Positions 41,641-57,940 of a stretch of DNA of 64,000 nucleotides are shown here, one piece after another. The stretch is taken from assembly GCA_963802945.1 (NCBI GenBank), contig CAWDKY010000029.1, positions 96,001-160,000 on the forward strand. The letters are read 5' to 3'. The translations under genes were made by a program, and so were the position numbers. A model generated the notes under the pieces. That model was given only the letters and a program-made list of their open reading frames with translations, was not told the origin of the DNA and ran no database searches. Origin of the DNA: an uncultured delta proteobacterium (GTDB lineage: Bacteria > Desulfobacterota > RBG-13-43-22). Numbering within the stretch: position 1 is the first letter of the stretch; each line of letters starts with the position of its first letter.

Positions 41641-43128
41641 CTAGATTCGCACCTCTTGCTTGAATCGCTCTGAGCCCACGATAAATTTCACAGTGGAGAG
41701 AGAACCTAAAATTGTGCCCAAAATACCCGGGGCCAACACGCTCTGGCCGGCCAAAAAAAGGCCTCGCAAGGAGGTCCGATTCAACAACGCGGCCGAAAGC
41801 ATTTGGTCGTTCGATCGCATGACCCCGTAAGCCGATCCTTCAGGACTGTTGACCCAATCCCGGATAGTCAAAGGGGTAAAGACGTCGAGGATCTCCAGCC
41901 CATGGAAGGGACCTAAAATCTTTTCTGCCCTCCCAATAATACTATGGGCCATATCAAGTTTCTTCTGGATGTAATCCGGACCGCGCTGTCCGGAGTGTGT
42001 CTGTTGCCAGGCTTGCCATATTTCATTATGACCTGAGGTGATCAGCGTCAACAGATTCTGTCCCGGTTCATCACTGGAGCGTAATTGCAGAAAGATCAGG
42101 TCCAGGAGGTCACCGTTGGAGTCGGGCTGTGCCAGGTATAAATTATGTAGAATTTCGGGGTGCAGCTCGGTCGGCACAAGGGCGTGTACCGCCATCATAC
42201 CGGCGGTATCCCTTAACTCCATAATCCTCCGACGGTAGGAGGCTTTAATGACTCCAGGCTCTAATAACTCGATTATCCTCTTAGGGTGGATCGTGCCGAC
42301 AATGAAGGAGGCGTCAAGGGTTTCTCCTGATTCCAGGGTAACTCCCCGGACCCGGCCGTCGGCCGTTCGAATGCCGGCTACCGCTTCTCCGGTACGCAAG
42401 CCTCCTCCCAGGGATTTCAGGCGTTGAGCGCAGACGTCAACCATGGTCGCTCCCTGCCCTTTTAGGCGCCAGGCGGACAAAAGGTAGCTGGCCAGGGTCA
42501 TGGAGTGATAGAACTGGGGGCACACTTCATGAGGCACACCAATCAAGACTGACGGCAGTCCAAAGACAGCCCGCAGCCCGGGGGAACAGCCGATCCGGTC
42601 GAAAATCGCTCCCAGCGGTTCGGCTTGATCAAACCAGTATTCAGTCGGTCGGTCGGAATATAAAAATGACAGGCGGTCCAATTGGTCGGCGCCGCGGCGT
42701 AACATAGCCATCAAAGCGGCCACTTGTGTTCTTTGGGTTGGAAAGGCGGTGTTTAAACTGGCTTCGTAAGACTCAAAACCGGTGGGCACATCGAAACTAT
42801 CGATCCCAAGATGGTTGTCGGTGAAAATGATACCGTCCACCGGCGCATCAATCCCCATCCGAATAAGTGGAAGCTGATCGGTAATTCCCAGAAAATCGAA
42901 ACAGCGGCGCAGAATCTGGCCATGATCCAGGGCGCCCATGTAATGCAGGCCGACGTTGCACTGCACCCCCCGGCGTGCGTAGCTGCGCATCATCCCACCG
43001 GGTTGTCGATTCTTCTCGATGACGGTGACTTCAAAACCGAGCTTGGCTAAAATGATGCCCGTGCTCAGGCCACCGATCCCGGAGCCGATGACCAGGACCT
43101 TTTCCTTGCCTTCTTTTAGTGCAGGCAT
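41641..43128 (-). CDS. phytoene desaturase (CrtI)-like FAD oxidoreductase
   Basis: VIGSGIGGL..EKN..PGG, GLHY, TPLT.RDW..SP.GSAYG, LFLAGQS. Confidence 0.85.
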   Translation of the reverse strand: MPALKEGKEKVLVIGSGIGGLSTGIILAKLGFEVTVIEKNRQPGGMMRSYARRGVQCNVGLHYMGALDHGQILRRCFDFLGITDQLPLIRMGIDAPVDGIIFTDNHLGIDSFDVPTGFESYEASLNTAFPTQRTQVAALMAMLRRGADQLDRLSFLYSDRPTEYWFDQAEPLGAIFDRIGCSPGLRAVFGLPSVLIGVPHEVCPQFYHSMTLASYLLSAWRLKGQGATMVDVCAQRLKSLGGGLRTGEAVAGIRTADGRVRGVTLESGETLDASFIVGTIHPKRIIELLEPGVIKASYRRRIMELRDTAGMMAVHALVPTELHPEILHNLYLAQPDSNGDLLDLIFLQLRSSDEPGQNLLTLITSGHNEIWQAWQQTHSGQRGPDYIQKKLDMAHSIIGRAEKILGPFHGLEILDVFTPLTIRDWVNSPEGSAYGVMRSNDQMLSAALLNRTSLRGLFLAGQSVLAPGILGTILGSLSTVKFIVGSERFKQEVRI

Positions 43129-43176
43129 TGGATTGTTCCCTTTCTAGTAAGCTTCCATTCTAAAAATGCAGAAGAG

Positions 43177-43945
43177 TCAGGGCTCACGCTGGAGTTCAAA
43201 GGCTTGCCTGACTTGCTCGATCAGTGCATGAATCGAGAAAGTATCACTGTCGTATTCCGGCGGAATGCTTACAATCCGTTTTACTTCAATCGTAATCGGA
43301 ACACAGGTATTTAATAAGAATGTGCCCGGCTTTAATAACCTATTCGTATTGGTTGATCATCAACACCTGAATCGGAGCATGATATTGCCTGGCAATGGTA
43401 AAGGCCCCTTTGTTTAACCGCCCGATCTTCCCGTCTCGGCTTCTCGTACCTTCCGGAAAGACGAATAAATTCCCCCCTGATGACAAATAATTTTCCATAT
43501 GCTTGATACGTTCCAACATAAGGACAGTAAAAGTCTCCTCTTTCGTTGAAAATAAATACCCGGATTTTTTTAACACCCATCCGAAAACGGGTACTTTCAG
43601 AAATGTTTTTTTAACGACCGTCTTTTGTTTTTCAAACAGAGAAACCAGAAGGATCGGATCGAGGTATGAAAGATGATTACAGACAATAACGGAAGACCGG
43701 ATGGAACAAACGTCGTCGTCAATGCGGATGTTTAAGCGGGGGGTGATGATTCGCAGGACGATAAAAAACGATTTGAAAAATCGGTGATTTATTTTTTGAA
43801 AAGAATTTTCGAGGTTATCAGAGAATAGGAAGGAAAAGAGATAAAAGGGAGAGAATAAAATGAAATAGCCAAAGGTAAAATATATCCATATAATAATGGT
43901 GACAAAAAAATCAATAGAACGTTTAATCCATTTGGGAATGGTCAT
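43177..43945 (-). CDS. 1-acyl-sn-glycerol-3-phosphate acyltransferase (PlsC family); +1 frameshift near 43355
   Basis: NHLSYLD, FPEGTRS, KGAF; the frame resumes ITNTNRLLKPG...QREP*. Confidence 0.85.
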
Positions 43946-44025
43946 TTTATATTTTAGGAGGTAAGTATTGGCAGTGAGTTGTTTTTTGGAAAACTTTAAA
44001 AAACAAGCCCCTCAGACACCAAATT

Positions 44026-45270
44026 TTAAATATCTTTAGCTGGATTTTTGATAATCAGGCAGGTGTTAACACCCCCAAAGGCAAAATTTTGGATAGCAGC
44101 CATTCGGATGTTGCCTTCCTGAAGTTTCAGGGCGTGCCGAATCATGGCACAACGGTCATCCACTACCTCCAGGTTCAATGTTGGAGCCATGAATCCTTCT
44201 TCCATCATGTAAAGGCAGAGAATGGTTTCGATGACACCGCAAGAGCCCATCGTATGTCCCATATAACTTTTTAAACCGGCAACACAGGGTGAATTCCCAT
44301 AGACCGAATGGATAGCCTGCGCCTCAATAATATCCCCCATTTTGGTTCCTGTGGCATGAGCGCTCACAAAATCAATCTGATCCGAAGAAATTCCGGCATT
44401 CTCGAGCCCAAGTAGAAGCGTCTGGGTGACGCCGTTTAGATTGGGCAAAATCAAATCGCCGCCGTTATTAGTGCAGGAAAAGCCAATGACTTCTCCAAGG
44501 ATGTTGGCCCCCCGTTTACAGGCGTGTTCGTATTCTTCCAACAGGACCGCCCCGGCGCCTTCGCCAACGACCAGACCGTCTCTTCTGGAATCAAACGGGC
44601 GAGGGGTGAGATGCGGGGTGTCATTAAAAGCAGTGGAACAGGCCAAAAGATTATCAAAAACAGCAACGGTCGTAGTGTCATATTCGTCAGCCCCACCGCA
44701 AAGCATGGCCTCCTGCATCCCGAACTTGATCGATTCATATCCAAAACCGATGGATTGGCTGCTGGTCGTGCAGGCCGTTGAAGAAGAAATAACCCGCCCC
44801 GTAATTCCAAACATCTTGGTGATATTCACCGCTGTCGTATGGACCATGGATTTCAGGTATTCAACTGCACCGATGTTTGAATATTCGGAAGAAGAGCCCC
44901 CGAAAAAGATTTTATAGATATCCCTCTGAACCGAAGGGCTGCCATGAGTTGATCCAAAGGCTACGCCTAAGCGTCCTGAGGTGATAAACGCATTATCTAA
45001 ACCGGAGGCCTCAATAACTTCCTTGGCCACCTGACAGGCATAATAGGCCACCGGACCCATGGTCTTGCGATGCGAGCGTTTGAAATCATATTCAATGGGA
45101 TAATCTACCGTTCCGAAAACTCCGGAATGGATATAACTGGTCAGAAGATCATCCTTGCGTAACGGTTTTACTCCGGAAATTCCCTTAACCAGGCTATTGA
45201 TGATTTCTTTTTTGGAATGCCCAATAGGGGTAATCGCTGAACAGGCGGTAATAACGACTCTTCTTTCCAT
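44026..45270 (-). CDS. beta-ketoacyl-ACP synthase (FabF/FabB-like)
   Basis: RRVVIT, TACTTS, RPFD.RRDGLVVGEG, HATGT, KSYMGHTMG, NFAFGGVN. Confidence 0.92.
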   Translation of the reverse strand: MERRVVITACSAITPIGHSKKEIINSLVKGISGVKPLRKDDLLTSYIHSGVFGTVDYPIEYDFKRSHRKTMGPVAYYACQVAKEVIEASGLDNAFITSGRLGVAFGSTHGSPSVQRDIYKIFFGGSSSEYSNIGAVEYLKSMVHTTAVNITKMFGITGRVISSSTACTTSSQSIGFGYESIKFGMQEAMLCGGADEYDTTTVAVFDNLLACSTAFNDTPHLTPRPFDSRRDGLVVGEGAGAVLLEEYEHACKRGANILGEVIGFSCTNNGGDLILPNLNGVTQTLLLGLENAGISSDQIDFVSAHATGTKMGDIIEAQAIHSVYGNSPCVAGLKSYMGHTMGSCGVIETILCLYMMEEGFMAPTLNLEVVDDRCAMIRHALKLQEGNIRMAAIQNFAFGGVNTCLIIKNPAKDI

Positions 45271-45285
45271 AAATCAATTCACATT

Positions 45286-45552
45286 TCAGGCCCTTGTTTT
45301 AGCCAAAGCTTCCACATAATCACAAATATGGTTAATGGTCCTAATATCCATCGCCTGTTTTTTTTCTTCCTGAGTCAGCTCTGTTTTTAATAAATGTTCA
45401 ATCTCTACCAGAAGTTCTATGGCGTCGATACTGTCGAACTCATACTTCTCTCTTAAATCATCATCCAAGTCGGGATTTTCGATTTCAAATTCTCTGGATA
45501 GAATTTTTAATATTTCACTCTTTATCTCTTCCCGTGTCATAATGGTATCCAT
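45286..45552 (-). CDS. acyl carrier protein
   Basis: Acidic 88 aa, YEFDSIDAIEL. Confidence 0.88.
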   Translation of the reverse strand: MDTIMTREEIKSEILKILSREFEIENPDLDDDLREKYEFDSIDAIELLVEIEHLLKTELTQEEKKQAMDIRTINHICDYVEALAKTRA

Positions 45553-45774
45553 CGTTTTGTTATCTTACAGCTTCCTTCTTCCTATTCTTTAACCAAGGAT
45601 CTTCAATAAGATCGATCAATTTTAAAAGAATAATTATAGGGCAAGAAAAGTGCTGGGTCAAGGAGAAAAAAGGTCAAATTTAAACAGGCTTTATTTGGCT
45701 TAGAAAACAAAAAAATAGAACTTTTGTCCGCCGACGGTTGGGAAAAAATCGCTAAGTTTCCTTCCCTGAACCAG

Positions 45775-46512
45775 CTAAATCATTCCCCCATTGACGGAGA
45801 TGACTTGACCGGTAATATAGGAGGCATCATCGGAACAGAGGAATCGGACAACTTTGGCCACCTCTTCCGGGAGTCCAACCCGACCCATGGGGATGATCTG
45901 TTTTATCATCGCCTTGGGCATGGCTTGAATCATCTCAGTTTCGATCATGCCTGGGGCCACTACGTTGACCCGAATACCGAGACGGGCGACCTCCGAGGCC
46001 AGGGAGCGACAAGCCCCTTCAAGAGCGGCCTTAGCTGCCGAATAGTTGGTCTGACCGCGGTGGCCGAGCCTGGCAGAAACGGAGGAGATGATCACAATCA
46101 CCCCTTGGTTTCTGGTGACCATCTTTTTAAGGACAGGTTGAGTGACATTATAAAATCCTTGTAACGATGTGTTAATAACCCTGGTCCATTCCTCGTTAGA
46201 CATGAGCACAAAAAGACTGTCTGCCGCTACTCCGGCATTATTGACTAAAATATCAATTCCTTCATGACGGGTCAAAAGGGCTTCAAGGCTTTTCTCGGTT
46301 GCTTCTTGATCCGCCACGTCAAAGCAGACCGTCTCGCCCATTCCTCCAGCTTCATGAATCAATCCCAAGGTCTCTTCAGCCGCCTTTTGGTTGGAAAGGA
46401 AATTAACAATCACATATAGGCCGTTTTTTGCCAGTTCCAGACAGATAGCCCGTCCGATTCCCCGACCTCCCCCCGTTACCAGGGCAATCTTCCTCGGCGA
46501 TAAAGGTTCCAT
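45775..46512 (-). CDS. fabG: 3-oxoacyl-ACP reductase (second copy)
   Basis: TGGGRGIG, LVNNAG, NYSAAK, VAPGMIET. Confidence 0.9.
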   Translation of the reverse strand: MEPLSPRKIALVTGGGRGIGRAICLELAKNGLYVIVNFLSNQKAAEETLGLIHEAGGMGETVCFDVADQEATEKSLEALLTRHEGIDILVNNAGVAADSLFVLMSNEEWTRVINTSLQGFYNVTQPVLKKMVTRNQGVIVIISSVSARLGHRGQTNYSAAKAALEGACRSLASEVARLGIRVNVVAPGMIETEMIQAMPKAMIKQIIPMGRVGLPEEVAKVVRFLCSDDASYITGQVISVNGGMI

Positions 46513-46633
46513 GTTTTTCTTTCTCCTCAAGTTATTAAGGGTTTATAATAATCTTGACCTGAAATGGATGGACTTACCTAACATTGGACTGGGGGATCTT
46601 TTTTGGGGCTTGTCTAAAAGGTAACTCATTGCC

Positions 46634-47098
46634 CTACCCCGGCCCGTCCAGTAAAGTTTTTTCGGAAAGGGCTTCCTCCTCCGGCTCCATGACTTGGATC
46701 GTGGTTTTAAAATGGAAGTCCGACCCAGAGTCGACCTGACCTTCATACACGGCATATTTTTCAACATAATAGGTCTCGGCAATATGGATAACAAGCCTCG
46801 TCCCCAAAGGAATGCTGGAGGGAGAAAATTCAGCTTCTTTAAGACCGACTACGAATCCAAGTCGCGATTCGGCTCCTTTTCCTTCATTCCAGGTTCTCAA
46901 GGCAGCGATGGCTTGGGCGACCAGTTCGATACATATCAAGGAACTCACCATACCGTCTCGGTGAAGAGGCCAATTGGCGTTTACGGTAGCTTCTGCCTGC
47001 AGGGTTTTCTCGATCGGTCGTCTTACCCATTCCAAGAGCCTCATAAGATGACGGTGCGGGATCAAAGGTTCAGCAGGAAACAATTCATTCCGTTCCAT
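46634..47098 (-). CDS. hotdog dehydratase-like protein (ApeP-like, second copy)
   Basis: LIPHR..MRLL, IELVAQ, GFVVGLK. Confidence 0.78.
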   Translation of the reverse strand: MERNELFPAEPLIPHRHLMRLLEWVRRPIEKTLQAEATVNANWPLHRDGMVSSLICIELVAQAIAALRTWNEGKGAESRLGFVVGLKEAEFSPSSIPLGTRLVIHIAETYYVEKYAVYEGQVDSGSDFHFKTTIQVMEPEEEALSEKTLLDGPG

Positions 47099-47123
47099 TT
47101 TTTTTATCCCATTAAATCATTCA

Positions 47124-47516
47124 TCAGTGTTCAAAAGGGCCTTCTTCTCGGGCCTTCAAAAAACCATGGACAACGAGTTTGGCCTGACAGGTTATCTGAA
47201 AATCGAGTTTAGCCTCAGGACCGCTGGGCATGGCTGCTACAGAAATGCATAGTTCATCCCCCGGGAGAACCAGATGCCTAAACCTTACCCTGGAAAAGCC
47301 TAAGACATTGAGAAGCCGACCATTTTCAAAGCCTTGCCTTTGTAGCGTTTCAGAAGCCAAGGCGAGGAGAGCCACGCCGGGTAACAAGGGGAATGTTTCA
47401 AAATGCCCCGAGAACCACTTTGATTGAGGCCCGAATCGCACCCTCGATTCCCATCGGCCTTCAGGGGTGATCCGTTGTTTCTCCAGAGGCAACCAATCAT
47501 CGGGGGGGGTAGGCAT
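47124..47516 (-). CDS. FabZ/ApeI-like dehydratase (second copy)
   Basis: WFSGHF..FPLLPGV, VRFRHLVLPG. Confidence 0.8.
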   Translation of the reverse strand: MPTPPDDWLPLEKQRITPEGRWESRVRFGPQSKWFSGHFETFPLLPGVALLALASETLQRQGFENGRLLNVLGFSRVRFRHLVLPGDELCISVAAMPSGPEAKLDFQITCQAKLVVHGFLKAREEGPFEH

Positions 47517-47600
47517 CCTACGACAGACTTTCTATTTTCGAGCTATCTGATATAAAATATAAGAGCTTTTCTTTTGGGGGACTTTTTATCAGTATGAAAA

Positions 47601-47688
47601 ATTCTATCCATAACTATTGGTATTGTCAATATTAAATAAACTTTATACTTAATTTCTCTTGACCTCAGGTTCTAATCCATTTTATAAT
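47601..47688. promoter_or_regulatory. divergent sigma70 promoter pair inside the lipid cluster
   Basis: Minus TTGACA-N17-TAGAAT (47629-47601); plus TTGACC-N18-TATAAT (47659-47688). Confidence 0.55.
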
Positions 47689-47740
47689 TCGTCTCACTTT
47701 AAAGGATAACCAATAAGAAAAATAATAAAAAGGGAGGATC

Positions 47741-48016
47741 ATGATGCCTGAAAAGGAAGACATTAAGGGCATTATTGAAAATGTAGCCCAAAAAATAATT
47801 TTTGAACTCAAACTGGAAGATGTAACGGTGGAAACGTTCAATCCTGATTTGGATCTGATCGATGAACTGGGAATTGACAGTATGGATCTGGCCACTATCG
47901 CTCTGGTTTTACAGGATGAATACAAGATTGTCATTGACGAAGACGATTATCCCAAATTGAAGACCATTCGCTTGATCGCCGAATATGTTGAGGAAAGAGT
48001 TAAAGCCCGGAGTTAA
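47741..48016 (+). CDS. acyl carrier protein
   Basis: DLIDELGIDSMD; GGAGG RBS. Confidence 0.9.
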   Translation: MMPEKEDIKGIIENVAQKIIFELKLEDVTVETFNPDLDLIDELGIDSMDLATIALVLQDEYKIVIDEDDYPKLKTIRLIAEYVEERVKARS

Positions 48017-48074
48017 GAATCCGGCAGCCCGATCCCGGTGCTAGGGTAGAGCAACTGAGAGGAACTCATTCGCC

Positions 48075-49145
48075 ATGACCATGAATCATCAGCCATTCTT
48101 GGAACCAGACCAAACGAAATTTTCCGAACTGCTTGCCCATCCGGAAGTCAGGCAGCGGTGGGAGAAAGTCCGAAAATATTTTTTCCTGCGGGAATCCACC
48201 TATGACATGAGCAATCGCTGCAATCTCCGTTGCGACGGATGTTATTATTATGAGGGGGAAAAACAATTCGCCGTTGAAAACAATCAGGTCGAAGCCTGGC
48301 GGGAACTGATGCAAACCGAAAAAAAACGGGGTATCACTTATGTGGTTCTGGCCGGGGCTGAACCCTCGCTCGTTCCGGAACTGTTGGAGGTATGCTTTCA
48401 GGAAATGCCGTTGGGCAGCATAGCCACCAATGGGTTGAAAAAAATCCCGGAATCGGTTGGATATAAAATCCACATTTCGGTTTGGGGTAACGATGAAACC
48501 AGCCTTCAGGTTCGGAAGGCCAGGGATCTTTTAACAAAACAAATCGAAAATTACCGGAATGACCCGCGGGCCGTTTTTGTCTATACCTTCACCCGGGTCA
48601 ATATCGCAGAGGTCTGGGAGGTGGCCGAACGCCTCGTGGCCGAGGATTGTAAGTTGACCTTCAATGTTTTTTCCTCCCCGATCGGCTATAAAGGACCTTT
48701 ACGCCACAATGAAGATTCACTGGAACGTACCAGAAACAATATGATCGCCCTCCTGGAGAAATATCCTCAGCAGGTTTTGTTCTCGGTCTATAATGCCGTT
48801 GCCCATACCCACCGCGGCAGTTTGCATGACCTTTTTGCCTGCCAGTACCCTCGACAAAACCCCTCTCAGGACATTGGCCTGGGACGGTCCTTTCGACAGT
48901 ACCGAACGGATTTAAAATGGGACCGGTCGGTGGCCTGCTGTGTGCCGGATACCGATTGTAGCGATTGCCGGCATTATGCCTCAGGTTCAGCTGTGGTCAC
49001 CGCCCGTCTTTTTCGTCATGCCGGTCAATTGGACACCTTCAAGGCTTGGCTGGATTATGTGGATACGTACCTGGCGGTATGGGTGATGGGGTATCCCAAA
49101 GGGGAGAATCTCTGTCCGGCCCCGGTCAGCCCCCCGATGACCTGA
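48075..49145 (+). CDS. radical SAM protein (paralog A, no B12 domain)
   Basis: YDMSNRCNLRCDGCYY, LAGAEP, ATNG, C-terminal C..CCVPDTDCSDC. Confidence 0.85.
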   Translation: MTMNHQPFLEPDQTKFSELLAHPEVRQRWEKVRKYFFLRESTYDMSNRCNLRCDGCYYYEGEKQFAVENNQVEAWRELMQTEKKRGITYVVLAGAEPSLVPELLEVCFQEMPLGSIATNGLKKIPESVGYKIHISVWGNDETSLQVRKARDLLTKQIENYRNDPRAVFVYTFTRVNIAEVWEVAERLVAEDCKLTFNVFSSPIGYKGPLRHNEDSLERTRNNMIALLEKYPQQVLFSVYNAVAHTHRGSLHDLFACQYPRQNPSQDIGLGRSFRQYRTDLKWDRSVACCVPDTDCSDCRHYASGSAVVTARLFRHAGQLDTFKAWLDYVDTYLAVWVMGYPKGENLCPAPVSPPMT

Positions 49146-49198
49146 ACTCCGGACCGAAAAATCAGAAAAACAAAAAGAAGGCTTTAAGAGACGACTTT

Positions 49199-50197
49199 AT
49201 GAAAACCGTCAGTTCATTATTAGATTCATCCTGGTCCGAACGTTATCGGAGGATTTCCAAATTAAATATCCGCAGTTCCATCTATGATGTTACCAACCAA
49301 TGCAATTTGCGCTGTAAGGGGTGCTTTTTCTTTTCCTCCAATGAACATCGGGCGGCCCGGGAAGAAATGGATCTAAAAAAGTGGGAGACTTTTATCGACC
49401 GGGAAAAAGAGCGGGGCGTCAATCTGGCCATATTGATCGGCGGAGAGCCGACCCTTTTCCTGGACAGGGTTGAGGCCTTTTATCATCGGCTGCCGACCTA
49501 TTGTGCCACCAACGGCTTGATCAAAGTGCCCCGGGATCGGTTTCCTGATATGATGATCGGGATCTCTCTCTGGGGCAGTCCTGAAGATGAAAAAATGCTC
49601 AGGGGAAAAGACACCTTTGCCGTTTCCAGTAAGCATTATGCCGGTGACCCCTATACCTATTATCTGTACACCATCACGCCACGGCAGGTAGGTAAAATCG
49701 AACCGGTCATTAAAAGAATCGCCGATATCGGGTTGAAGGTTCATCTTCAGCTTTTGTCAAACGACGAACATGTGGAAGGCTTTTCCTGGCGGGAAGAAGA
49801 ACTAACGGCCTTGCGTCACGAACTGGATGAAATGTTGGATCGGTATCCCCAAACGATCATTTCCTGCAAATATTACCATCAAATCATCACCACAGGGACC
49901 ATGATGGGCCGTCCCTTCGGCTGGAACGAATGCCCCTCTGTAACCGAATCCTTAGACAATAGGAATCCCCAGCCCCACCGTTTGATTCACTTCATCCGCT
50001 GGGCTTCTGATTTAAAGACGGTCCACCGCTGCTGCACTTCAGCCAGCCGGGACTGTTCCACCTGCAAGGACGGGGCGGCCCACATGAGCTGGGTTATGGT
50101 CAACAAAAGGGAACATATTCGGTCGACCGAAGATTTGCAGAACTGGATCGAAGTTTATGAAATGTTCGCCAAACTGTATCATTTTATCCCCTGGTGA
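49199..50197 (+). CDS. radical SAM protein (paralog B, no B12 domain)
   Basis: YDVTNQCNLRCKGCFF, IGGEP, ATNG, C-terminal C..CCTSASRDCSTC; ATG MKTVSS taken as the start. Confidence 0.85.
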   Translation: MKTVSSLLDSSWSERYRRISKLNIRSSIYDVTNQCNLRCKGCFFFSSNEHRAAREEMDLKKWETFIDREKERGVNLAILIGGEPTLFLDRVEAFYHRLPTYCATNGLIKVPRDRFPDMMIGISLWGSPEDEKMLRGKDTFAVSSKHYAGDPYTYYLYTITPRQVGKIEPVIKRIADIGLKVHLQLLSNDEHVEGFSWREEELTALRHELDEMLDRYPQTIISCKYYHQIITTGTMMGRPFGWNECPSVTESLDNRNPQPHRLIHFIRWASDLKTVHRCCTSASRDCSTCKDGAAHMSWVMVNKREHIRSTEDLQNWIEVYEMFAKLYHFIPW

Positions 50198-50374
50198 TTC
50201 CGGGCGGGACTTTGGCAGTCTGCTTTTTCCGGCATTCAAATCCGACCTCCTCATCGATTCCATCGAAAAGAGAAAAAGCGCTGGCTTGGTCTCCTCAACG
50301 GTAGGTGATGCCTCAGGGCATATACTTAAAAATTTATTTCTCTTCAAATGTTCTTTTTGATTTGAGTACTCTTT

Positions 50375-51625
50375 ATGGAATCAAAAAAAGCAGTCATTTT
50401 AGGATATGATGCTGTTTCCCCTTTAGGAACGGACTGGAAAACCCAATGGGAAAGGGTGGTACGCGGGGACTCAGGAATAGGCCCCCTAACCCGTTTTTCC
50501 TTAAGTCCCGATTTCCCGGTAAGGGTGGCCGGGGAAGTTCCGCCTTTTGATATCAAGCCTTTTCCTTTTTTGCAACCCCGGGAAATGGCCCATTGGACTT
50601 CCCCTATTTTCCCCAACGCCCTGTTGGTCGTCCACCGCGCCCTGCAAAAAAGCGGTTTGGTGATTACACCCGAGATAGCCCCCCGCGTGGCCGTCACCTT
50701 CAGCAGTGCCATCGGAGGGCTGGATGCCGTGTTGGTGGCGGACCGCTTGATGGTCTCCCAGGGGAAAATGCCCCATCCCTTTACCAACCCCAACTCATGC
50801 ATCAATATGGTCGGCGGACGGGTCTCTGTTTTCACCGGGGCTACCGGACCCATCTTTTCCACCATTACGGCCTGCGCCACGGGCGTCACCTCATTAATCA
50901 CAGGGGCAATGCTTCTGCGTCAGGGGCTGGCCGATGTGGTCATCGGAGGAGCGGTCGATTTTCCGTTGGTTGAACCGATCGTTGCCGGCTTTGTCACCAT
51001 GAACGGCGCTTATCATCCCAAAGAGGGTCAGCCGCTTGAACCGCCTGAAAAAACCAGCCGGCCTTTTTCCGTTAACCGCAGGGGGTTTGTGGTTTCCGAA
51101 GGGGCAGCCTGCATTATCATTGCCTCAGCGGAATTCGCTGCCGCCCATGGACTTAAAGCGCCCATAGAACTGGCCGGGTTTGGAATGACCTCGGATGCCA
51201 AGCACTTCGTTGCCCCTAATCTGGAAACCGTTCAAAGATCCATGGAGCTGGCTATCACCCAGGCCGGGATTAATCCCTCGGATATCGATGCCATAAACGC
51301 CCACGCCACTTCGACCAAGGTAGGGGACAAGGTGGAGGTTGATGCCCTGCATAATATCTTCGGAAAACGCATTCCTCCGGTATCGGCCAATAAATCCCAA
51401 ATGGGCCATGCCATGGGGGCCTCCAGCGCCATTGAGGCCATTTTCGCCATGGAAGGGTTGCTCAAAGATACCTTGCTTCCCACGATTAATTATCTCCCTG
51501 ATCCGGAAGTTGAATTGGACTGTGTGTCCGAAGGGGCCAGAAAATTGAACGGAGAATTTATCTTGAAAAATGCACTGGGCTTTGGCGGGTGCAATGCCTG
51601 TTTGGTTTTACGGAGATTGTTATAA
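50375..51625 (+). CDS. beta-ketoacyl-ACP synthase II-like
   Basis: TACATG, SRPFS..R.GFV.SEG, HATST, KSQMGHAMG, GFGGCN. Confidence 0.9.
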   Translation: MESKKAVILGYDAVSPLGTDWKTQWERVVRGDSGIGPLTRFSLSPDFPVRVAGEVPPFDIKPFPFLQPREMAHWTSPIFPNALLVVHRALQKSGLVITPEIAPRVAVTFSSAIGGLDAVLVADRLMVSQGKMPHPFTNPNSCINMVGGRVSVFTGATGPIFSTITACATGVTSLITGAMLLRQGLADVVIGGAVDFPLVEPIVAGFVTMNGAYHPKEGQPLEPPEKTSRPFSVNRRGFVVSEGAACIIIASAEFAAAHGLKAPIELAGFGMTSDAKHFVAPNLETVQRSMELAITQAGINPSDIDAINAHATSTKVGDKVEVDALHNIFGKRIPPVSANKSQMGHAMGASSAIEAIFAMEGLLKDTLLPTINYLPDPEVELDCVSEGARKLNGEFILKNALGFGGCNACLVLRRLL

Positions 51626-51653
51626 AGGATAAACTGGAAAAACTCTAAATCCG

Positions 51654-51790
51654 GACGGCTTCGTAAAAAGTTCGCAGGTAAGGCGCGCAAATCCTGAGAA
51701 ACGAGGCGTACACATAGGTACGCCGCAATGACGAAGGATGAAGCGCAATCCCGCGAAACGCGGGACTTCCGGACTTTTTACGAAGTCGTC
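51654..51790. mobile_element. 137-bp MITE-like element with 18-bp terminal inverted repeats
   Basis: gacggcttcgtaaaaagt ... actttttacgaagtcgtc (1 mismatch); internal hairpins ggcgtac/gtacgcc and tcccgcg/cgcggga. Confidence 0.75.
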
Positions 51791-51811
51791 ATAAAGGACG
51801 TGCAGTGAACC

Positions 51812-53077
51812 ATGAAGGCACCTAAAAACAGAAGGGTGTTTGTTGTCGGTTATGGGATGGCCACACCCCTGGGCAGCACCTTTGAGAAGACCTGGAAGCG
51901 GGCTGTCAAAGGGGAAGCCGGGTTCCGGAAAGTCACCCGATGCCAGGTGGAATCGGCCTGCAACATTGTCGGAGAAATCCCGGACTGGAATCCCTTAGAG
52001 CTGGATTATATCGATGCCAAAGAAGTGTACAACTGGAACGCCGGTTTTGTTATCATGACCATGGCTGTCTGTCAGGAAGCCCTGCAAAACGCCGGGATTA
52101 CCATGGATGAACAGATTTCCCCCCGAATGGCCTGCCTGATGGGCTCTGCCTTAAATGGGCCGGATGCTTTTCGTATCGCCATGCAGGACCTGGAACAACG
52201 GGGACCTTTAAGGGTAAGCCCTTATCTGCTCCCCAATCTATGCGCCAATGTACCTGGCGGAAAGGCCGGCATGCTCCTAAAATTCACCGGTCCCATCTTT
52301 TCTCCCCAAGGGGCCTGCGCCTCGGGGAACCATGCCATCGGGATAGGGGCCAGAATGATCCGGGACGGGGATTGCGATTTCGTATTGGCCGGCGGGGCCG
52401 ATGCCCCTATTCTGCCGGAATTGATCCACGGCTTTGCCAATATGAATGCTACGATCAAGGTCTACCCAAAAGATCGGGCCTTTACAGATCCAGCCCAGGC
52501 TTCACGCCCTTTCAGTCTTGACCGAAGAGGATTTGTTCTTTCTGAAGGAGCCGGCGCAGTAATTCTGGCGGCGGAAGAAGTCATTAAGGCTTACGGTCTC
52601 AAGGCCCTGGCCGAGGTCTTAGGGGTAGGCTGGACTTCGGACGCTTATCATTACACCAGTCCCAATCCCGTCACCATTGTCCGGGCCATCAGGGAAACTA
52701 TTGAGGACGCTGGCTTGGAGCCAAAGGACATCCAATATATCAATGCCCACGGTACGTCTACGCCCAAAGGGGACCGGACGGAAATAAAATGCCTTCGTGA
52801 AGTGTTCGGCAAGGCCATTGAAAAAATCCCCGTTTCTTCCAATAAGTCCCAATTTGGCCACACTTTGGGGGCCACCGCAGCAATTGAAGCGGCCTTAACC
52901 ATCGAAGCCATGGGAAGAGGGTGTATCTTACCGACTATCAATCATATTCCTGATCCGGAATTTTCCGATATCGATGTAGTGCCCAATGAAGTCCGCCGGC
53001 ATCATTATGAATTGGCTCTTTCCAATGCCTTTGGGTTTGGAGGGACGAACTGCTGTATTATTTTCAGGGGGGTGTGA
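51812..53077 (+). CDS. beta-ketoacyl-ACP synthase II-like
   Basis: RRVFVVG, GACASG, SRPFS.DR.GFVLSEG, HGTST, KSQFGHTLG, NAFGFGGTN. Confidence 0.9.
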   Translation: MKAPKNRRVFVVGYGMATPLGSTFEKTWKRAVKGEAGFRKVTRCQVESACNIVGEIPDWNPLELDYIDAKEVYNWNAGFVIMTMAVCQEALQNAGITMDEQISPRMACLMGSALNGPDAFRIAMQDLEQRGPLRVSPYLLPNLCANVPGGKAGMLLKFTGPIFSPQGACASGNHAIGIGARMIRDGDCDFVLAGGADAPILPELIHGFANMNATIKVYPKDRAFTDPAQASRPFSLDRRGFVLSEGAGAVILAAEEVIKAYGLKALAEVLGVGWTSDAYHYTSPNPVTIVRAIRETIEDAGLEPKDIQYINAHGTSTPKGDRTEIKCLREVFGKAIEKIPVSSNKSQFGHTLGATAAIEAALTIEAMGRGCILPTINHIPDPEFSDIDVVPNEVRRHHYELALSNAFGFGGTNCCIIFRGV

Positions 53078-53562
53078 AGATGCGTCCCAAACCTTTTCGA
53101 CCCGAACCTTTCACTAACGATCCCAACTTTATCCGCGACCAATCCACTGGTTTGATCTGGCACCGCTCTAAGTATAGAACGTTATATGCCGATACGGACC
53201 GTTCGGCCGTGGTTTATCATGCCAATTACTTGAGATTTTTTGAATTCGGACGAACCTCTTTGATGCGCGACTTCGGTTACCCCTATAAAGAAATCGAAGC
53301 CAGCGGCTTTGTTTATCCCATTATCGATTTAAGGATCGGATATTATTCTCCCTTGTATTATGATGACGTCATGCTGATCCATACCCGGCCGACCCACCTG
53401 GAAAGGGTCCGACTGCAGTTTGACTACCTGATCACCGAAGCGGAAACCGGCCGGATCGTCTGCATCGGATATACTAAACACTGCGCCCTGAATGCCAAGG
53501 GGCTTCCTGTGGCCGTGGACCCCCAAACGATTGCCCTTTGGAAATCCTTCCCCGGTGACTAA
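53074..53562 (+). CDS. YbgC/FadM-like thioesterase
   Basis: YADTD..VVYHANYLRFFE.GR. Confidence 0.88.
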   Translation: MKMRPKPFRPEPFTNDPNFIRDQSTGLIWHRSKYRTLYADTDRSAVVYHANYLRFFEFGRTSLMRDFGYPYKEIEASGFVYPIIDLRIGYYSPLYYDDVMLIHTRPTHLERVRLQFDYLITEAETGRIVCIGYTKHCALNAKGLPVAVDPQTIALWKSFPGD

Positions 53563-53610
53563 GGGTCTCATAATAGTTTTGGCATGAAACGTTTTGCTTC
53601 GCATTAGATT

Positions 53611-53829
53611 AAGGACCAGGGAGGTTTTATTTTTGGGGTTGTCCACTCTGAACCTGGAAGCTTCTTTACCGGGCCAATTATTTAACTAAATCAAAAGCAG
53701 GCCTTCACCTGGGCTCGAAACAGGCTACGGTGGAGGCCCTGCCTCGAATCAAACTTTGCTGGACTGGCCGGGATAGGGCGATAAATTACCCTTTGGACAA
53801 TCCCCAAAAATAAAACCTCCCCGGTCCTT
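53611..53829. mobile_element. ~219-bp MITE-like element with ~35-bp terminal inverted repeats
   Basis: aaggaccagggaggttttatttttggggttgtcca (53611-53645) vs tggacaatccccaaaaataaaacctccccggtcctt (53794-53829); 1 mismatch and 1 indel. Confidence 0.75.
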
Positions 53830-53845
53830 TTTAGACAATGTTATT

Positions 53846-54703
53846 TTGAGACCCTTATTAAATCAAAAAATGCGCCATCCTTTGGAAATTGAAGTCGGTG
53901 ACTATTTATTGGACCATCGATTTGAAGGCCGGTGTGTTTTGCCGGCGGCAGAGGCTTTAAATGTCCTGGCCATGGTTGTTCATGAATATTTTTCCAATTG
54001 GGATATGGTTTGTTTGACCGAAGCGCGGTTTCCCCGTTTTCTGATTATCCCCCCTGAAATACACCGTCTGCCGGTCATCGTCGAAATAGATCACACCCCC
54101 AAGGGGGGTATTTCAGCTGGGCTTATGACCTCGATGAGATCAAGGACTGGAGGCATCAGCCGTAACCTGGAGCATGCCCGGGTGGAATTTTTTCTGGCCA
54201 ATTCTTCCTCAATTTCTGTGCCGTTTTTAACCGATGTGGGAAATCCCGACGGACAGGGCTTCACGATACCGGTTGTTTCGATTTACCCCCAGCTGATCCC
54301 CTTCGGGACGGCTTATAGGAATATTATCGGCCCGGTGTCTCTTTCACCCCTAGGGGCTTCGGCTTCCCTGTTCGGCGGGGATCAGAGAAAGGAGGATGAT
54401 CTGCTCGGCTCCCCGTTTCCCTTTGATGCCGCTCTTCAGATGGCTTGTATCTGGGGGCAATGTTTTACCGAGCATGTTCCCTTCCCAGTGGGTTTTGAAA
54501 AAAGGGTCATCTACCAGAAAACCAAAAAAGGGGGTTTCTACCTCGGCAGGATTATACCGGTGGCGGTTGAGCAGAACCCGTTCTTATTTGACGCCCTGAT
54601 TATTGATTCCCAAGGGTCTATCTGCGAGGAAATCCTGGGAATTCAGATGCAGGATGTATCTCAAGGGCGCCTGCACCCGCCGTCATGGATCAAAGAGTTG
54701 TGA
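53846..54703 (+). CDS. stand-alone polyketide-synthase-type dehydratase (double hotdog)
   Basis: YLLDHRFEGRCVLP (HxxxGxxxxP), IY...PFG.AY, SPFPFDAALQ (DxxxQ). Confidence 0.75.
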   Translation: MRPLLNQKMRHPLEIEVGDYLLDHRFEGRCVLPAAEALNVLAMVVHEYFSNWDMVCLTEARFPRFLIIPPEIHRLPVIVEIDHTPKGGISAGLMTSMRSRTGGISRNLEHARVEFFLANSSSISVPFLTDVGNPDGQGFTIPVVSIYPQLIPFGTAYRNIIGPVSLSPLGASASLFGGDQRKEDDLLGSPFPFDAALQMACIWGQCFTEHVPFPVGFEKRVIYQKTKKGGFYLGRIIPVAVEQNPFLFDALIIDSQGSICEEILGIQMQDVSQGRLHPPSWIKEL

Positions 54704-55114
54704 CCGTAAAGCTAACCAAATATGTTTGAAATTGGATTCGTTAGACCAAGTTTCCAAGCCTATGGAAAGGACTCAATCTTCTGAAATGATATTGGATACT
54801 GGTTTCTTGATTCTGGATAAAGTCAATCAAGCAGCAAGGATCGGCTATTTGATCCAGTATCAGGTTTTTGGTTTAATTCAGCTTCCCCTTGACTCTCCTT
54901 CAAAAGTACCTTATAAATTTCCATCCAAAAGCAATAAAAGTGACGGACATCGGAGACTCATGGAGGAGATTTGCCCTTCAAGGCTCAAAGATCAGTAAGG
55001 CTGTTTACCCGATGGAGACGACTACGGACGTTTGTATGACATCCTTCTGGATTGTGGGCAGAAGGAATCCCATTTATATCAGGAGTTATCGGTAAAAATC
55101 CGTTGAAGGTATGT

Positions 55115-55867
55115 ATGTTTTCCGATGTAAAAATACTTTCTGCTGACCGATTGGTCAAGATCTATCCGAAACGATCCCAACCGGCCATAAACGGAATTAC
55201 ACTCTCCATCACGGAAGGGGAGGTTTTCGGTCTTCTTGGCCCGAATGGGGCCGGAAAGACTACGGCGATTTCAATCATGACCACACTGCTCAAACCTACG
55301 AGCGGGAGCCTTACGATCTGCGGATTGGATACCCTCAGATACCCTGCTCAGGTAAGAGGTCTTATCGGCTTTGTTCCCCAGGAGGTCGCCCTTTATCAGA
55401 ATCTCACCCTTCGTGAAAATCTCAGATTCTTTGGCCGTATCTATGGGTTGCGAGGGAAAGAACTGGCAACCCGTATCTCCGAATTTATTGAAATGGTAGG
55501 TCTTGAGGAAAGTGCCGATTCCCTTGTTTTCACCTTTTCCGGGGGAATGAAGCGTCGGGCCAACTTGGCGGCGGGTATCCTCCACAAGCCGAAGGTTCTC
55601 TTTCTTGACGAGCCGACCGTGGGAGTTGATCCCCAATCCAGAAATTTAATCCTGGAGAGACTTGCCGGATTAAAAGAAAAAATCACCATGGTCTATACCA
55701 CCCACTATATGGAAGAGGCCGAATCACTCTGTTCTTACGTGGCTATCATGGATGCAGGGCAAGTCATCATCGAAGGAACTCCTGAGGAGCTTCTTCGACG
55801 GTTCCCCGAGTGTATCGATTTGGAAGCCCTTTTTATTAAACTGACCGGGAAACAACTTCGAGATTGA
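55115..55867 (+). CDS. ABC-2 exporter ATP-binding subunit
   Basis: GPNGAGKT, FSGGMKRR, LDEPT, TTHYMEE. Confidence 0.93.
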   Translation: MFSDVKILSADRLVKIYPKRSQPAINGITLSITEGEVFGLLGPNGAGKTTAISIMTTLLKPTSGSLTICGLDTLRYPAQVRGLIGFVPQEVALYQNLTLRENLRFFGRIYGLRGKELATRISEFIEMVGLEESADSLVFTFSGGMKRRANLAAGILHKPKVLFLDEPTVGVDPQSRNLILERLAGLKEKITMVYTTHYMEEAESLCSYVAIMDAGQVIIEGTPEELLRRFPECIDLEALFIKLTGKQLRD

Positions 55868-55876
55868 CAGGTTGCT

Positions 55877-57235
55877 ATGGTTAAATTCTGGTCTTTTGTT
55901 CAAAAAGAACTGATCCTCTTCTACCGTGATTTTTCCGGCCTGTTGGTGTTGTTTGTCATGCCTTTGGCCCTGGTTATTGTGGTCACTTTGGTTCAGGAGA
56001 ATGTTCTTAAATACATGGGAGAGACTAAGAACCGGGTGCTTTTTGTTGACCAGGATGGAAAAATGATAGGGAAATGGGTAGAAGAATCCTTAAGAAAGTC
56101 CGGTTCGATAGAAATGGTCAAGGACCTCAAAGGAAAACCGGTCGATATAGAAACGGCCAAAAAGGCAGTGCTTAGAGGAGATTTCCAGACCTGTGTCCAA
56201 ATCCCCCCCGGGCTGACCGAAGCTTTCAAAAAAAAAGTTCGACAATCGGTAAAAAACTCTCTTGCTCCTGATGCTAAAAAAAGGAAAACCCTGACTGCAG
56301 GAGATAAAGGTCTTCTGTTTGTTCCGGTCTATTTTGATCCAACCCTTCGGGAAAACTACCGGACCGGGATGATCAACGGTCTGGAAAAAATGATCCTGGG
56401 ATTGGAAATCAAAGAAAAGATGGGGGTCTTCTCGGAACTCTTGCCGGAAAAAATGGAAGAAATGGCTAAAAAAGTGGCCGGGCCTATGTGGTCGGATGAA
56501 TTTAAAAAAGGGATACCCAAAATTCAATTAGACTGGGACGAAAAGCCCCTTATGGCGATTAAAGAGAAGACGACTCAATCTCAAGACGTCATCGTGGTTT
56601 TTAGTACCATACAGCAGAACGTTCCAGCCTGGACCCTCTTCGGTATGTTTTTTATCGTGGTTCCTCTGGGCGGTTCCCTTATTCGGGAAAGACAAGAGTT
56701 GATGCTGGCCCGACTTCTGACCATGCCGACTTCTTATCTCACCATCATTTCCGGAAAGATCCTGGCCTATGTTATGATATGTTTGGTCCAGGTTGTCCTC
56801 ATTTTTTCTGTCGGGAAGTTTTTGTTGCCGCTTCTTGGGACACCCGGTCTGGAATTGGGGGCATCACCAATGGCGTTATTACTCGTTGTTTTAAGTTCGG
56901 CCCTGGCCGCCTCCGGGTATGGCATACTCCTGGGTACCATTGCCAGGACTTATGAGCAGGCTTCCATGTTCGGCGCCGTCTCGGTGGTGATCGCCGCAGC
57001 TCTTGGCGGAGTGATGGTTCCGGCCTATTTTATGCCGAAAGTGATGCAGGAAATCAGTAGTTTTTCCCCTCTCGCCTGGGGCCTGAATGCATTTTTAAAC
57101 GTGTTGGTTCGCGGCGGGAATATACGATCGATCATTCCCGATGCAGCCTTATTGATGAGTTTCTTTGTAATAACCGTCAGCGTGGCCTGGTTTTATATGT
57201 TTAAACGAGGGCGGGTCGGAATTCAGCAACAGTAA
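55877..57235 (+). CDS. ABC-2 exporter permease
   Basis: KEL...RD, large periplasmic loop, QQNVPAWTLFGMFF, ALGGVMVP, SPL.WG. Confidence 0.88.
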   Translation: MVKFWSFVQKELILFYRDFSGLLVLFVMPLALVIVVTLVQENVLKYMGETKNRVLFVDQDGKMIGKWVEESLRKSGSIEMVKDLKGKPVDIETAKKAVLRGDFQTCVQIPPGLTEAFKKKVRQSVKNSLAPDAKKRKTLTAGDKGLLFVPVYFDPTLRENYRTGMINGLEKMILGLEIKEKMGVFSELLPEKMEEMAKKVAGPMWSDEFKKGIPKIQLDWDEKPLMAIKEKTTQSQDVIVVFSTIQQNVPAWTLFGMFFIVVPLGGSLIRERQELMLARLLTMPTSYLTIISGKILAYVMICLVQVVLIFSVGKFLLPLLGTPGLELGASPMALLLVVLSSALAASGYGILLGTIARTYEQASMFGAVSVVIAAALGGVMVPAYFMPKVMQEISSFSPLAWGLNAFLNVLVRGGNIRSIIPDAALLMSFFVITVSVAWFYMFKRGRVGIQQQ

Positions 57236-57289
57236 GGTAAATGGGGGGAAATTGCCCTTGATAAAGGGAGCCAACCGTTGAGAGCGACC

Positions 57290-57940
57290 ATGAGTGTTGA
57301 AGCGATTATTTTTGACCTGGACGGGACCTTGCTGGATACTATTGATGACCTGACGGATTCTATGAACCAAGTGTTGAGCCGTTTTGGCTTTTCAGGGCAT
57401 GACCGGGAGGCTTATAAATATTTTGTCGGCGATGGGATTGGCGCCTTGGTTAGAAGGGCTTTGCCGCCGGAAAACCGTGATGAAGAAATGGTCGCGCGGT
57501 GTGTTGAGGCCATGAGAGAAGAATACAGCTTACGTTGGGACAAAAAGACCCACCCTTATTCGGGGATCCCCGAACTTTTGGATGCCCTTTTCCAAAGGGG
57601 ATTATCTATGGCCATCCTGTCCAACAAACCCCATGATTCTTGCCAAATGGTCGTGGCCAAATTACTGCCCAAGTGGCCGTTTCAAATAGTTTTGGGCGCC
57701 CGCCCCTCTGTTCCCAAAAAGCCGGACCCTGCAGCGGCCCTGGAAATCGCTGAAAGGATGCACCTGACCCCCGGACAATTTTTATATCTTGGAGATACCG
57801 GCACCGATATGAAAACAGCAGTTAATGCCGGGATGTTTCCTGTCGGGGCTTTATGGGGCTTTCGTACGGCCCAGGAACTCATGGCCGATGGGGCCAGGGC
57901 CTTGGTTGAACAACCTTTGGATTTTCTCCAATACCTGTAA
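57290..57940 (+). CDS. HAD-family phosphatase (Gph-like)
   Basis: FDLDGTL.D, LSNKP, KPDP, GDTGTD, WGFR. Confidence 0.9.
   Translation: MSVEAIIFDLDGTLLDTIDDLTDSMNQVLSRFGFSGHDREAYKYFVGDGIGALVRRALPPENRDEEMVARCVEAMREEYSLRWDKKTHPYSGIPELLDALFQRGLSMAILSNKPHDSCQMVVAKLLPKWPFQIVLGARPSVPKKPDPAAALEIAERMHLTPGQFLYLGDTGTDMKTAVNAGMFPVGALWGFRTAQELMADGARALVEQPLDFLQYL

Follow-up and report, generated by a model that had tools for sequence, protein, structure and literature searches.

The 64,000-nucleotide stretch analysed here (the window), positions 96,001 to 160,000 of contig CAWDKY010000029.1 from an uncultured delta proteobacterium (assembly GCA_963802945.1), contains at positions 47741-54703 an intact and strongly conserved module of seven genes. 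These genes encode an acyl carrier protein (ACP), two radical S-adenosylmethionine (SAM) enzymes termed A and B, two ketosynthases (KS1 and KS2), a thioesterase (TE) and a stand-alone dehydratase (DH) of the polyketide synthase (PKS) type. The module is not unique to the source genome and belongs to a cluster type that has been known since 2009. With a probability of roughly 0.55, it operates as an ACP-based system in which A and B act on an ACP-tethered chain, by desaturation or by carbon-carbon closure, and in which the thioesterase releases the product. The source genome comprises 4.37 Mb in 72 contigs and belongs to a peat-type syntrophic bacterium, the nearest named relatives being metagenome-assembled genomes (MAGs) assigned to Thermodesulfobacteriota, Smithellaceae and Syntrophaceae.

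The gene order ACP-A-B-KS1-KS2-TE-DH had been described in an earlier note on this DNA, made from the sequence alone, and was confirmed by the open reading frames (ORFs), by matches to Pfam and NCBIfam models and by conserved residues. All seven genes, located on the forward strand, and every motif named in that note are present. The ACP gene (47741-48016) specifies a protein of 91 amino acids that matches PF00550 (34.8 versus a cut-off of 20.8) and carries the phosphopantetheine attachment residue Ser47 in the motif GIDSMD, this serine being kept in 25 of 25 aligned rows; every ACP model of NCBIfam stayed under its cut-off, the best one with 37.3 versus 76. The genes for A (48075-49145, 356 amino acids) and B (49199-50197, 332 amino acids) follow after gaps of 58 and 53 bases, respectively. 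Both deduced proteins match PF04055 (32.5 and 30.7 versus a cut-off of 29.5) and contain the CX3CX2C motif of radical SAM enzymes, at C49/C53/C56 in A and at C35/C39/C42 in B. The translation start of B at position 49199 is supported by orthologs sharing the N-terminus MKTVSSLL.

The ketosynthases KS1 (50375-51625) and KS2 (51812-53077) are FabF-like proteins with both the N-terminal and the C-terminal ketosynthase domain. Their catalytic triads, which had been regarded as intact, are indeed complete (Cys167/His310/His345 in KS1, Cys169/His313/His350 in KS2) and conserved in each protein, with the cysteine present in 27 of 27 rows, the first histidine in 27 of 27 and the second histidine in 26 of 27. 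The best solved relatives are B. subtilis FabF 4ls5 for KS1 (E 2.9e-79) and FabF 2gqd for KS2 (E 9.2e-87); the scores of both proteins against TIGR03150 (332.2 and 388.9) lie below the cut-off of 493.75. KS1 and KS2 are thus predicted to work like FabF without being equivalogs of the housekeeping enzyme. The thioesterase gene (53074-53562), which shares its first 4 bases with the end of the KS2 gene, encodes a hotdog protein of the YbgC/FadM type that matches TIGR00051 (82.5 versus 68.7) and PF13279 (4HBT_2; 49.9 versus 25.5), with the residues D40, D42, H49 and N51 kept in 27 of 27 rows.

The last gene of the module (53846-54703) encodes a protein of 285 amino acids with His24 in an HxxxGxxxxP motif and Asp194 in a DxxxQ motif, both residues being kept in 26 of 26 rows. 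The protein itself remained below the Pfam cut-offs of PKS_DH_N (PF21089; 21.1 versus 27) and PS-DH (PF14765; 19.8 versus 23.7), and orthologs pass the latter with 45.4 and 38.2 bits. A structural model with a mean predicted local distance difference test (pLDDT) value of 88.6 aligned over its full length with PKS dehydratase domains at template modelling (TM) scores of 0.67-0.75, including those of MAS-like 5bp4, of the trans-acyltransferase systems 5j6o and 5hqw, and of CurF/J/K. Since the histidine and aspartate residues, the Pfam scores of the orthologs and the model fold agree, the protein is a true PKS-type double-hotdog dehydratase, as had been proposed. In three of 15 loci fetched from other families of the phylum, each from a different genome, the dehydratase is fused C-terminally to an Sfp-type 4'-phosphopantetheinyl transferase (L092 4604-6064, L093 2481-4007 and L094 7888-9408); no gene for such a transferase was seen after the dehydratase gene in the window.

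The two radical SAM enzymes are paralogs, as the earlier note had stated, with 25% identity over 321 columns (E 1e-32), and both carry the segments YD..N.CNLRC.GC, ATNG and HISVWG/GISLWG. The cysteines of the SAM cluster are kept in 28 of 28 rows of A and B and are invariant in a 40-row alignment of the family. Both proteins end in a set of five cysteines, arranged as C256...C288C289-x5-C295-x2-C298 in A and as C245...C278C279-x6-C286-x2-C289 in B, which are kept in 26 to 28 of 28 rows. Among the A-type rows C256 is present in 26 of 28 and C288, C295 and C298 each in 27 of 28, and the latter three positions are invariant across the 40-row family alignment. The upstream cysteine (C256 in A, C245 in B) and the three invariant ones would therefore provide four ligands for one auxiliary cluster, and the C-terminal cysteine set of A likely binds a single auxiliary iron-sulphur cluster. 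The absence of a B12-binding domain and of the canonical SPASM spacing, both claimed previously, was borne out: searches of A and B yielded no Pfam match to a B12-binding domain, no match to TIGR04072 in NCBIfam and no Pfam SPASM domain model at E 0.01 or better. SPASM families of NCBIfam matched the N-terminal core alone, with 16-33 bits versus cut-offs of 300-855. Members of the SPASM subgroup possess a seven-cysteine C-terminal pattern that holds two auxiliary clusters; with five C-terminal cysteines and no SPASM model match, A and B are assigned to a position outside this subgroup.

A and B are claimed by no curated family, and Pfam, NCBIfam and the ESM Atlas gave no name beyond the designation 'radical SAM'. 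Weak NCBIfam matches to PapB, ScmE, Tes, NirJ, MoaA and viperin (15-33 bits versus cut-offs of 131-855) cover the radical SAM core only. The structural model of A (pLDDT 89.8, predicted TM score 0.90) has its nearest fold in SkfB 6efn (Z 19.1, rmsd 4.2 over 245 residues), with which viperin (Z 18.4), SuiB (18.2), BlsE (17.5) and anSME (17.4) are effectively tied. The partial TIM-barrel core of the pair resembles that of viperin and of the SPASM/twitch enzymes (SkfB 6efn, SuiB 5v1q, anSMEcpe 4k36, BlsE 7vob, CteB 5why and MoaA 1tv7), and a cysteine-bearing C-terminal extension is likewise shared with these proteins. By their modelled fold, A and B belong to the SPASM/twitch-like class, an assignment that names no substrate; the solved SPASM/twitch members perform oxidations and cross-links with the help of an auxiliary cluster. 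Unlike the genes of these enzymes, those of A and B have an ACP and ketosynthases as genomic partners instead of a precursor peptide or a sugar or nucleotide pathway.

The conservation of the module was analysed by a genome pattern scan that was based on a seven-row alignment and covered one genome per species. The scan detected at least 599 stretches, at least 570 of which encode a relative, and locus counts were obtained from the best 80. These 80 loci of the Syntrophales stem from MAGs or drafts labelled Smithella, Smithellaceae, Syntrophaceae, Syntrophales, Deltaproteobacteria or Thermodesulfobacteriota. An ACP gene is located just upstream of A in 76 of the 77 loci with enough flanking sequence, and B directly follows A in all 74 loci that could be evaluated. 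The complete order ACP-A-B-KS1-KS2-TE-DH was recognised by a strict script in 48 of the 56 loci whose flanks were long enough. The misses comprise three loci in which ACP-A-B is followed by other genes (L011, L064 and L086), two without a DH match at the 39% filter (L061 and L083), one in which 5 kb are inserted between B and KS1 (L081), one with a fragmentary KS1 (L084) and one in which an existing ACP match was dropped by the filter of the script (L008). The ACP-A-B unit is kept together without KS-KS-TE-DH in L064, in L086 and in L011/L103.

Within the genus of the source organism, 10 of 13 other genomes contain A at E 1e-200 or better, and the three genomes without it are 97, 93 and 85% complete; among seven genomes from other genera of the family no strong match to A was obtained. 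Across 401 genomes sampled evenly from the phylum, A is present at 63% identity or more in 30 (including the source genome) from about ten families, and the A orthologs are 63-96% identical across families. All 30 carriers have B next to A on the same contig. The 15 loci fetched from other families contain A, B, KS1, KS2, TE and DH throughout and the ACP in 14 cases. The linkage of the pair to its own ACP and to KS-KS-TE-DH is very tight and conserved. The mean column identity across families amounts to 71% for A and to 82% for B (19 orthologs of B), and the purifying selection deduced for both proteins is strong. The ABC transporter and HAD genes downstream of the dehydratase gene (55052-57940) were considered as further members of the module and rejected, as they are absent after DH in relatives.

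Variant arrangements of the pair were seen in a few loci. The loci L096 and L100, from two genomes of one family (G308 and G281), show the order ACP-A-KS1-B-KS2-TE-DH. In a MAG of the same genus as the source organism (L103 9840-11960, G004:C29), A and B form one ORF of 706 amino acids with a linker of about 30 residues; this copy adjoins the operon of the aryl-polyene type and has no KS-KS-TE-DH, a B12/DUF4070 radical SAM gene and an AMP-ligase gene coming next, and the same genome contains a second, complete and unfused module on another contig. The fusion is a single observation that could result from the loss of a stop codon or from a sequencing error, and a protein search for longer relatives, which gives weak evidence on this point, revealed no fused A/B forms. 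An apparent fusion of B and KS1 in L089 was rejected, since the frame of 760 amino acids exists from stop to stop only, with B ending at 11600 and KS1 starting at 11616.

The enzymes A and B are part of a much wider family. More than 2000 relatives of A were present in the protein collection, the best 120 being 76-93% identical, and clustering at 50% left 475 representatives of the family at E 0.001 or better. Among the full-length representatives, P0121 alone is close to A, followed by P0128 at 41% and by many more at 23-38%. In a quick tree with a midpoint root, an A clade and a B clade were joined against 29 rows of a 'third type' with weak support (SH-like approximate likelihood ratio test value of 84), and the long stems of both clades fit an old duplication. 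Named third-type matches came from the Alphaproteobacteria, namely from Jiella pelagia and a Sphingomonadaceae MAG. Among the weaker radical SAM matches within the phylum (E 1e-20 to 1e-28), five of six fetched regions were devoid of lipid genes and the sixth (L109) was located inside a TIGR04072-type cluster. The distant B-like protein P0222 (724 amino acids, metagenomic) has a TubC N-terminal docking domain and a type I thioesterase domain preceding the radical SAM domain, a fusion that points to a role on an assembly line of nonribosomal peptide synthetases or PKS. The names returned by cluster look-up and profile search were Deltaproteobacteria, Smithella, Syntrophaceae, Thermodesulfobacteriota, Desulfobacterales, Bacteroidales, Sphingomonadaceae and Jiella pelagia, and no name of an anammox organism occurred among the matches listed in the protein, genome, cluster and profile searches.

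The module closes, on the right, a lipid cluster some 30 kb long that spans roughly positions 26.8-54.7 kb of the window. The left part of this cluster contains genes for a FabG protein, a polysaccharide-deacetylase-like protein, a LolA2-like protein, pieces of an MMPL/HpnN-like exporter, an ApeI-like dehydratase, a hotdog thioesterase and pieces of ketosynthases; two B12-type radical SAM genes, a GT2 glycosyltransferase gene and a pair of genes for a ketosynthase and a chain-length factor (KS/CLF) occupy the middle. The operon divergent to the module (41641-47516, reverse strand) encodes, according to Pfam and NCBIfam, a CrtD/phytoene-desaturase-like flavoenzyme, an LPLAT acyltransferase, a ketosynthase, an ACP, a FlxB-like FabG, an ApeP-like dehydratase and an ApeI/FabZ-like dehydratase; L007, L011 and L012 show the same collinear arrangement of this operon and the module. 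One of the B12-type genes (36288-37652, forward strand), which is preceded by a second B12-like radical SAM gene (35027-36295), specifies a full member of TIGR04072 (rSAM_ladder_B12, 'lipid biosynthesis B12-binding/radical SAM protein'; 640.9 versus a cut-off of 360). For this reason the locus belongs to the 'ladderane-like' cluster type that combines type II fatty acid synthesis (FASII) with radical SAM genes.

TIGR04072 exceeded its cut-off in 78 of the 401 sampled genomes, namely in 21 of the 30 carriers of the A/B pair and in 57 of the 371 other genomes, figures that represent counts and not a test, given the non-independence of related genomes. The TIGR04072 gene is located within 25 kb of A on the same contig in 17 of the 30 carriers, and two more carriers lie just below the cut-off with 356 and 353 bits. 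Seen from the other side, about a quarter (21/78) of the sampled TIGR04072 genomes contain the A/B module. Most Smithella-type loci have a B12-type radical SAM gene (33-38% to B12b) and a gene for a FabZ/ApeI-like dehydratase directly upstream on the same strand, and in other families the module is found among FabG, LolA-like, MMPL, GT2, LPLAT, PDH and KS/CLF genes. From these gene neighbourhoods we regard the module as an optional addition to TIGR04072-marked lipid clusters of the ladderane-like or aryl-polyene-like kind.

A ketosynthase of the window is split over two overlapping ORFs, the N-terminal part being encoded at 33006-33509 and the C-terminal part together with a second partial ketosynthase at 33412-34851, and the MMPL-type exporter is split over the overlapping ORFs 29764-30828 and 30818-32158; these splits could reflect frameshifts, assembly errors or decaying genes. 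Outside the window, the source genome contains a second TIGR04072-like gene (G000:C34:65250-66527) with 305 bits, below the cut-off, and one in-frame TAA codon. Two tRNA genes (13961-14032 and 61441-61513, reverse strand) were the sole matches to Rfam at gathering score in the window.

The region's two best promoter-like sites are arranged back to back in the 224-base gap in front of the ACP gene. One sigma-70-like site (47659-47688, forward strand) faces the ACP operon and the other (47629-47601, reverse strand) faces the operon of dehydratase, FabG, ACP and ketosynthase genes, each agreeing with the consensus at 11 of 12 positions. The forward site may provide the separate promotion of the module that had been proposed; the number of sigma-70-like sites in the region (10 found versus 11.9 expected from shuffled sequences) is not in excess. 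By consensus match only, the gap fits a divergent promoter region.

An element of about 220 bp resembling a miniature inverted-repeat transposable element (MITE) lies between the TE and DH genes (53611-53829, within 53556-53858; no strand assigned). It is bounded by terminal inverted repeats of 28 nucleotides (53611-53638 and 53802-53829) that are 96% complementary, and at least six further near-full-length copies with 82-95% identity are present on other contigs. In the 93%-identical relative L007 the element is missing, and TE directly adjoins DH. The insertion does not belong to the conserved module, and it may uncouple the dehydratase gene from the operon in the source genome.

The ladderane-like clusters are among the closest known systems. 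The combination of FASII and radical SAM genes was initially reported from Kuenenia and Desulfotalea (Rattray 2009, PMC2649909), and clusters of this kind have been flagged by genome miners in many non-anammox phyla (PMC9902471); the available parts of these reports and of two others (PMC4790861, PMC13459092) treat the product of the clusters in non-anammox anaerobes as unknown. Their expression in E. coli remained without result, as described in the available part of the study by Javidpour (2016, PMC4790861), and the enzymes forming the ladderane rings are still unknown according to the accessible portion of a 2026 review (PMC13459092). For the anammox 'Cluster I', a B12-dependent enzyme and not a twin pair devoid of B12 is named in the literature, as far as the portions at hand extend. 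The loci kuste3335-3352 and kuste3603-3608 of Kuenenia stuttgartiensis and DP185x of Desulfotalea psychrophila share with the present locus a type II FAS/PKS-like make-up that includes additional ACPs, several paralogs of FabF, a flavoenzyme resembling phytoene desaturase, a glycosyltransferase, an exporter of the MMPL type and radical SAM enzymes. In contrast to the ladderane-like marker TIGR04072, A and B are not members of that family and lack a B12 domain. The polyunsaturated hydrocarbons of Desulfotalea have reportedly been ascribed later to Ole and Pfa genes, an assignment at odds with confidence in the functional reading of 2009, and the Syntrophales hosting the module are, to our knowledge, not known as ladderane makers.

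A second group of related systems is represented by the ape and flexirubin clusters of Gammaproteobacteria and Bacteroidota, with which the present locus has in common ApeI-like and ApeP-like dehydratases, LPLAT, GT2, MMPL, a hotdog thioesterase and nearby KS/CLF genes. Most matches of the aryl-polyene type stay below the curated cut-offs, for instance those of the FlxB-like FabG (299.4 versus 340) and of LolA2_flexi (102.4 versus 125). We know of no classical ape cluster (ApeA-R) that includes radical SAM enzymes or a second ACP-KS-KS-TE-DH module. With respect to chemistry, the cyclopropanase Jaw5/C10P, which acts in the iterative PKS pathway of jawsamycin, is the sole characterised radical SAM enzyme working on a growing carrier-bound ketoacyl chain that is named in the available text of PMC13459092, with the enoyl thioester serving as radical acceptor. 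Like the Jaw5 system, the module pairs a dehydratase, ketosynthases and an ACP with radical SAM enzymes. No Jaw5 or HemN-like structure occurred among the 50 fold matches listed for A; Jaw5 is of the HemN-like class, employs two SAM molecules and lacks a C-terminal cysteine cluster. In the limited collection of literature searched, no paper on an ACP-linked twin radical SAM pair was found. Nor was a characterised pathway with this arrangement found, in line with the earlier note; the arrangement is a widespread accessory module of TIGR04072-marked clusters and not a singular case.

In the working model that we favour, the dedicated ACP, converted to the holo form on Ser47, would carry the growing acyl chain and the catalytically complete KS1 and KS2 would extend it with malonyl units. 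Keto-reduction may be borrowed from a neighbouring or housekeeping FabG, and the PKS-type dehydratase, often together with the upstream FabZ/ApeI-like dehydratase, would yield enoyl (or hydroxy) intermediates. The enzymes A and B, possibly as a complex and each equipped with a SAM-cleaving cluster and a putative auxiliary twitch-like cluster on four cysteines, would then attack the ACP-tethered chain in an oxygen-independent two-electron change, either a desaturation or the formation of a carbon-carbon ring or cross-link. The hotdog thioesterase would release the product, which in the source genome is probably handed to the adjacent acyltransferase, glycosyltransferase, LolA and MMPL proteins for lipid attachment and export. 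Both the action of A and B on an ACP-bound acyl chain and the specific chemistry are inferred from gene linkage and fold class. The linkage of the genes, the strong purifying selection, the retained catalytic residues, the DH-transferase fusions, the domain structure of P0222, the fold class and the TIGR04072 context argue for work on a carrier-bound chain.

Several observations weigh against this model. The substrate of A and B is fixed neither by a curated family nor by a close relative of solved structure, and the nearest folds, at 11-21% identity, belong mostly to peptide maturases and to nucleotide or sugar enzymes, none of which is known to us to use acyl-ACP. A single third-type member from the phylum was inspected (G057, locus L098); it has neither an ACP nor a ketosynthase gene nearby, its neighbours being DnaE2, a GSDH-like protein and a short-chain dehydrogenase/reductase (SDR), so that linkage to an ACP characterises the A and B clades and not the whole family. 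In the source genome itself, the MITE-like element separates TE from DH. The DNA identity to L007, about 93% over 44045-53555, decreases to 77% for DH (53859-54731 versus L007 15368-16240), and the similarity ends after 54731; this drop at the TE/DH junction, coinciding with the MITE-like element, marks a breakpoint of recombination or replacement. Moreover, at least two genes with 40% identity or more to the window's aryl-polyene-type genes were detected within the 10-kb flanks of only 5 of the 80 Syntrophales loci, which leaves the proposed hand-over to the neighbouring cluster on weak ground.

The same count lends some weight to the view that the module makes its own modified fatty acid, free or at the CoA or ACP level, and that its adjacency to the aryl-polyene-like genes is a local accident. 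The module does own an ACP, ketosynthases, a dehydratase and a thioesterase, and the synteny with the nearest relative stops just after DH. We nevertheless consider such independence fairly unlikely in view of the B12-type radical SAM and FabZ/ApeI-like dehydratase genes directly upstream in most Smithella-type loci, the embedding of the module among lipid genes from FabG to KS/CLF in other families, and the enrichment of TIGR04072 among the carriers of the pair. A different division of labour, in which ACP, KS, TE and DH only supply the chain and A and B tailor a finished or released lipid, for example by tail joining like archaeal Tes/GDGT-MAS, appears improbable. The lipid attachment and export genes of the surrounding cluster would suit it, as would the weak N-terminal match to Tes (28.3 bits) and the presence of GDGT-MAS 7tom among the structural neighbours (Z 14.5, 19% identity over 230 residues). 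However, the Tes score is far under its cut-off of 450, the protein ranks 35 among the folds, and the tightest unit of the module is ACP-A-B, which persists even where KS-KS-TE-DH is missing and in which the ACP precedes A almost without exception.

A role of A and B in modifying a protein or peptide in the manner of maturases of ribosomally synthesised and post-translationally modified peptides, with the ACP itself, a ketosynthase or an unannotated short peptide as substrate, is regarded as very unlikely. The closest folds do include the peptide maturases SkfB (Z 19.1), SuiB (18.2), ChlB (16.2) and CteB (16.0), and the best weak NCBIfam matches are those to PapB and ScmE. The latter span the radical SAM core only and fall 10-fold or more under their cut-offs, no peptide-recognition domain was found in the Pfam search of A and B, and the pair co-occurs with KS-KS-TE-DH and is separated from the ACP by the short gaps given above. 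Viperin, BlsE and anSME, moreover, score within about one to two Z units of SkfB, and for this reason the fold does not single out work on peptides. More specific than the favoured model is the idea that A and B represent the first radical SAM enzymes to tailor chains of fatty-acid-type synthesis in an ACP-dependent manner and alternate with the ketosynthases in a cycle of extension, dehydration and a radical step on the enoyl-ACP, the latter being a ring closure, a cross-link or a desaturation. This alternation, which seems to us a rather long shot, resembles the 'stepwise' ladderane route, one of the hypotheses listed in the 2026 review as far as its text was available (PMC13459092). If it were true, the order A-KS1-B-KS2 in L096 and L100 would reflect two enzyme-ketosynthase working pairs.

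Radical SAM chemistry on ketoacyl lipids, that is, lipids of the fatty-acid type, is almost unexplored, and the module represents a compact test system for it, with seven conserved genes and a dedicated ACP directly in front of two sister enzymes. Solving its function would put a name to a lipid made by syntrophic anaerobes that live in peat, wetlands and digesters and could additionally help to understand the larger ladderane-like clusters that have been flagged without known products. If ACP-dependent tailoring by A and B is true, the module would provide an oxygen-free route to cyclised or otherwise carbon-carbon-modified fatty acids in anaerobic bacteria.

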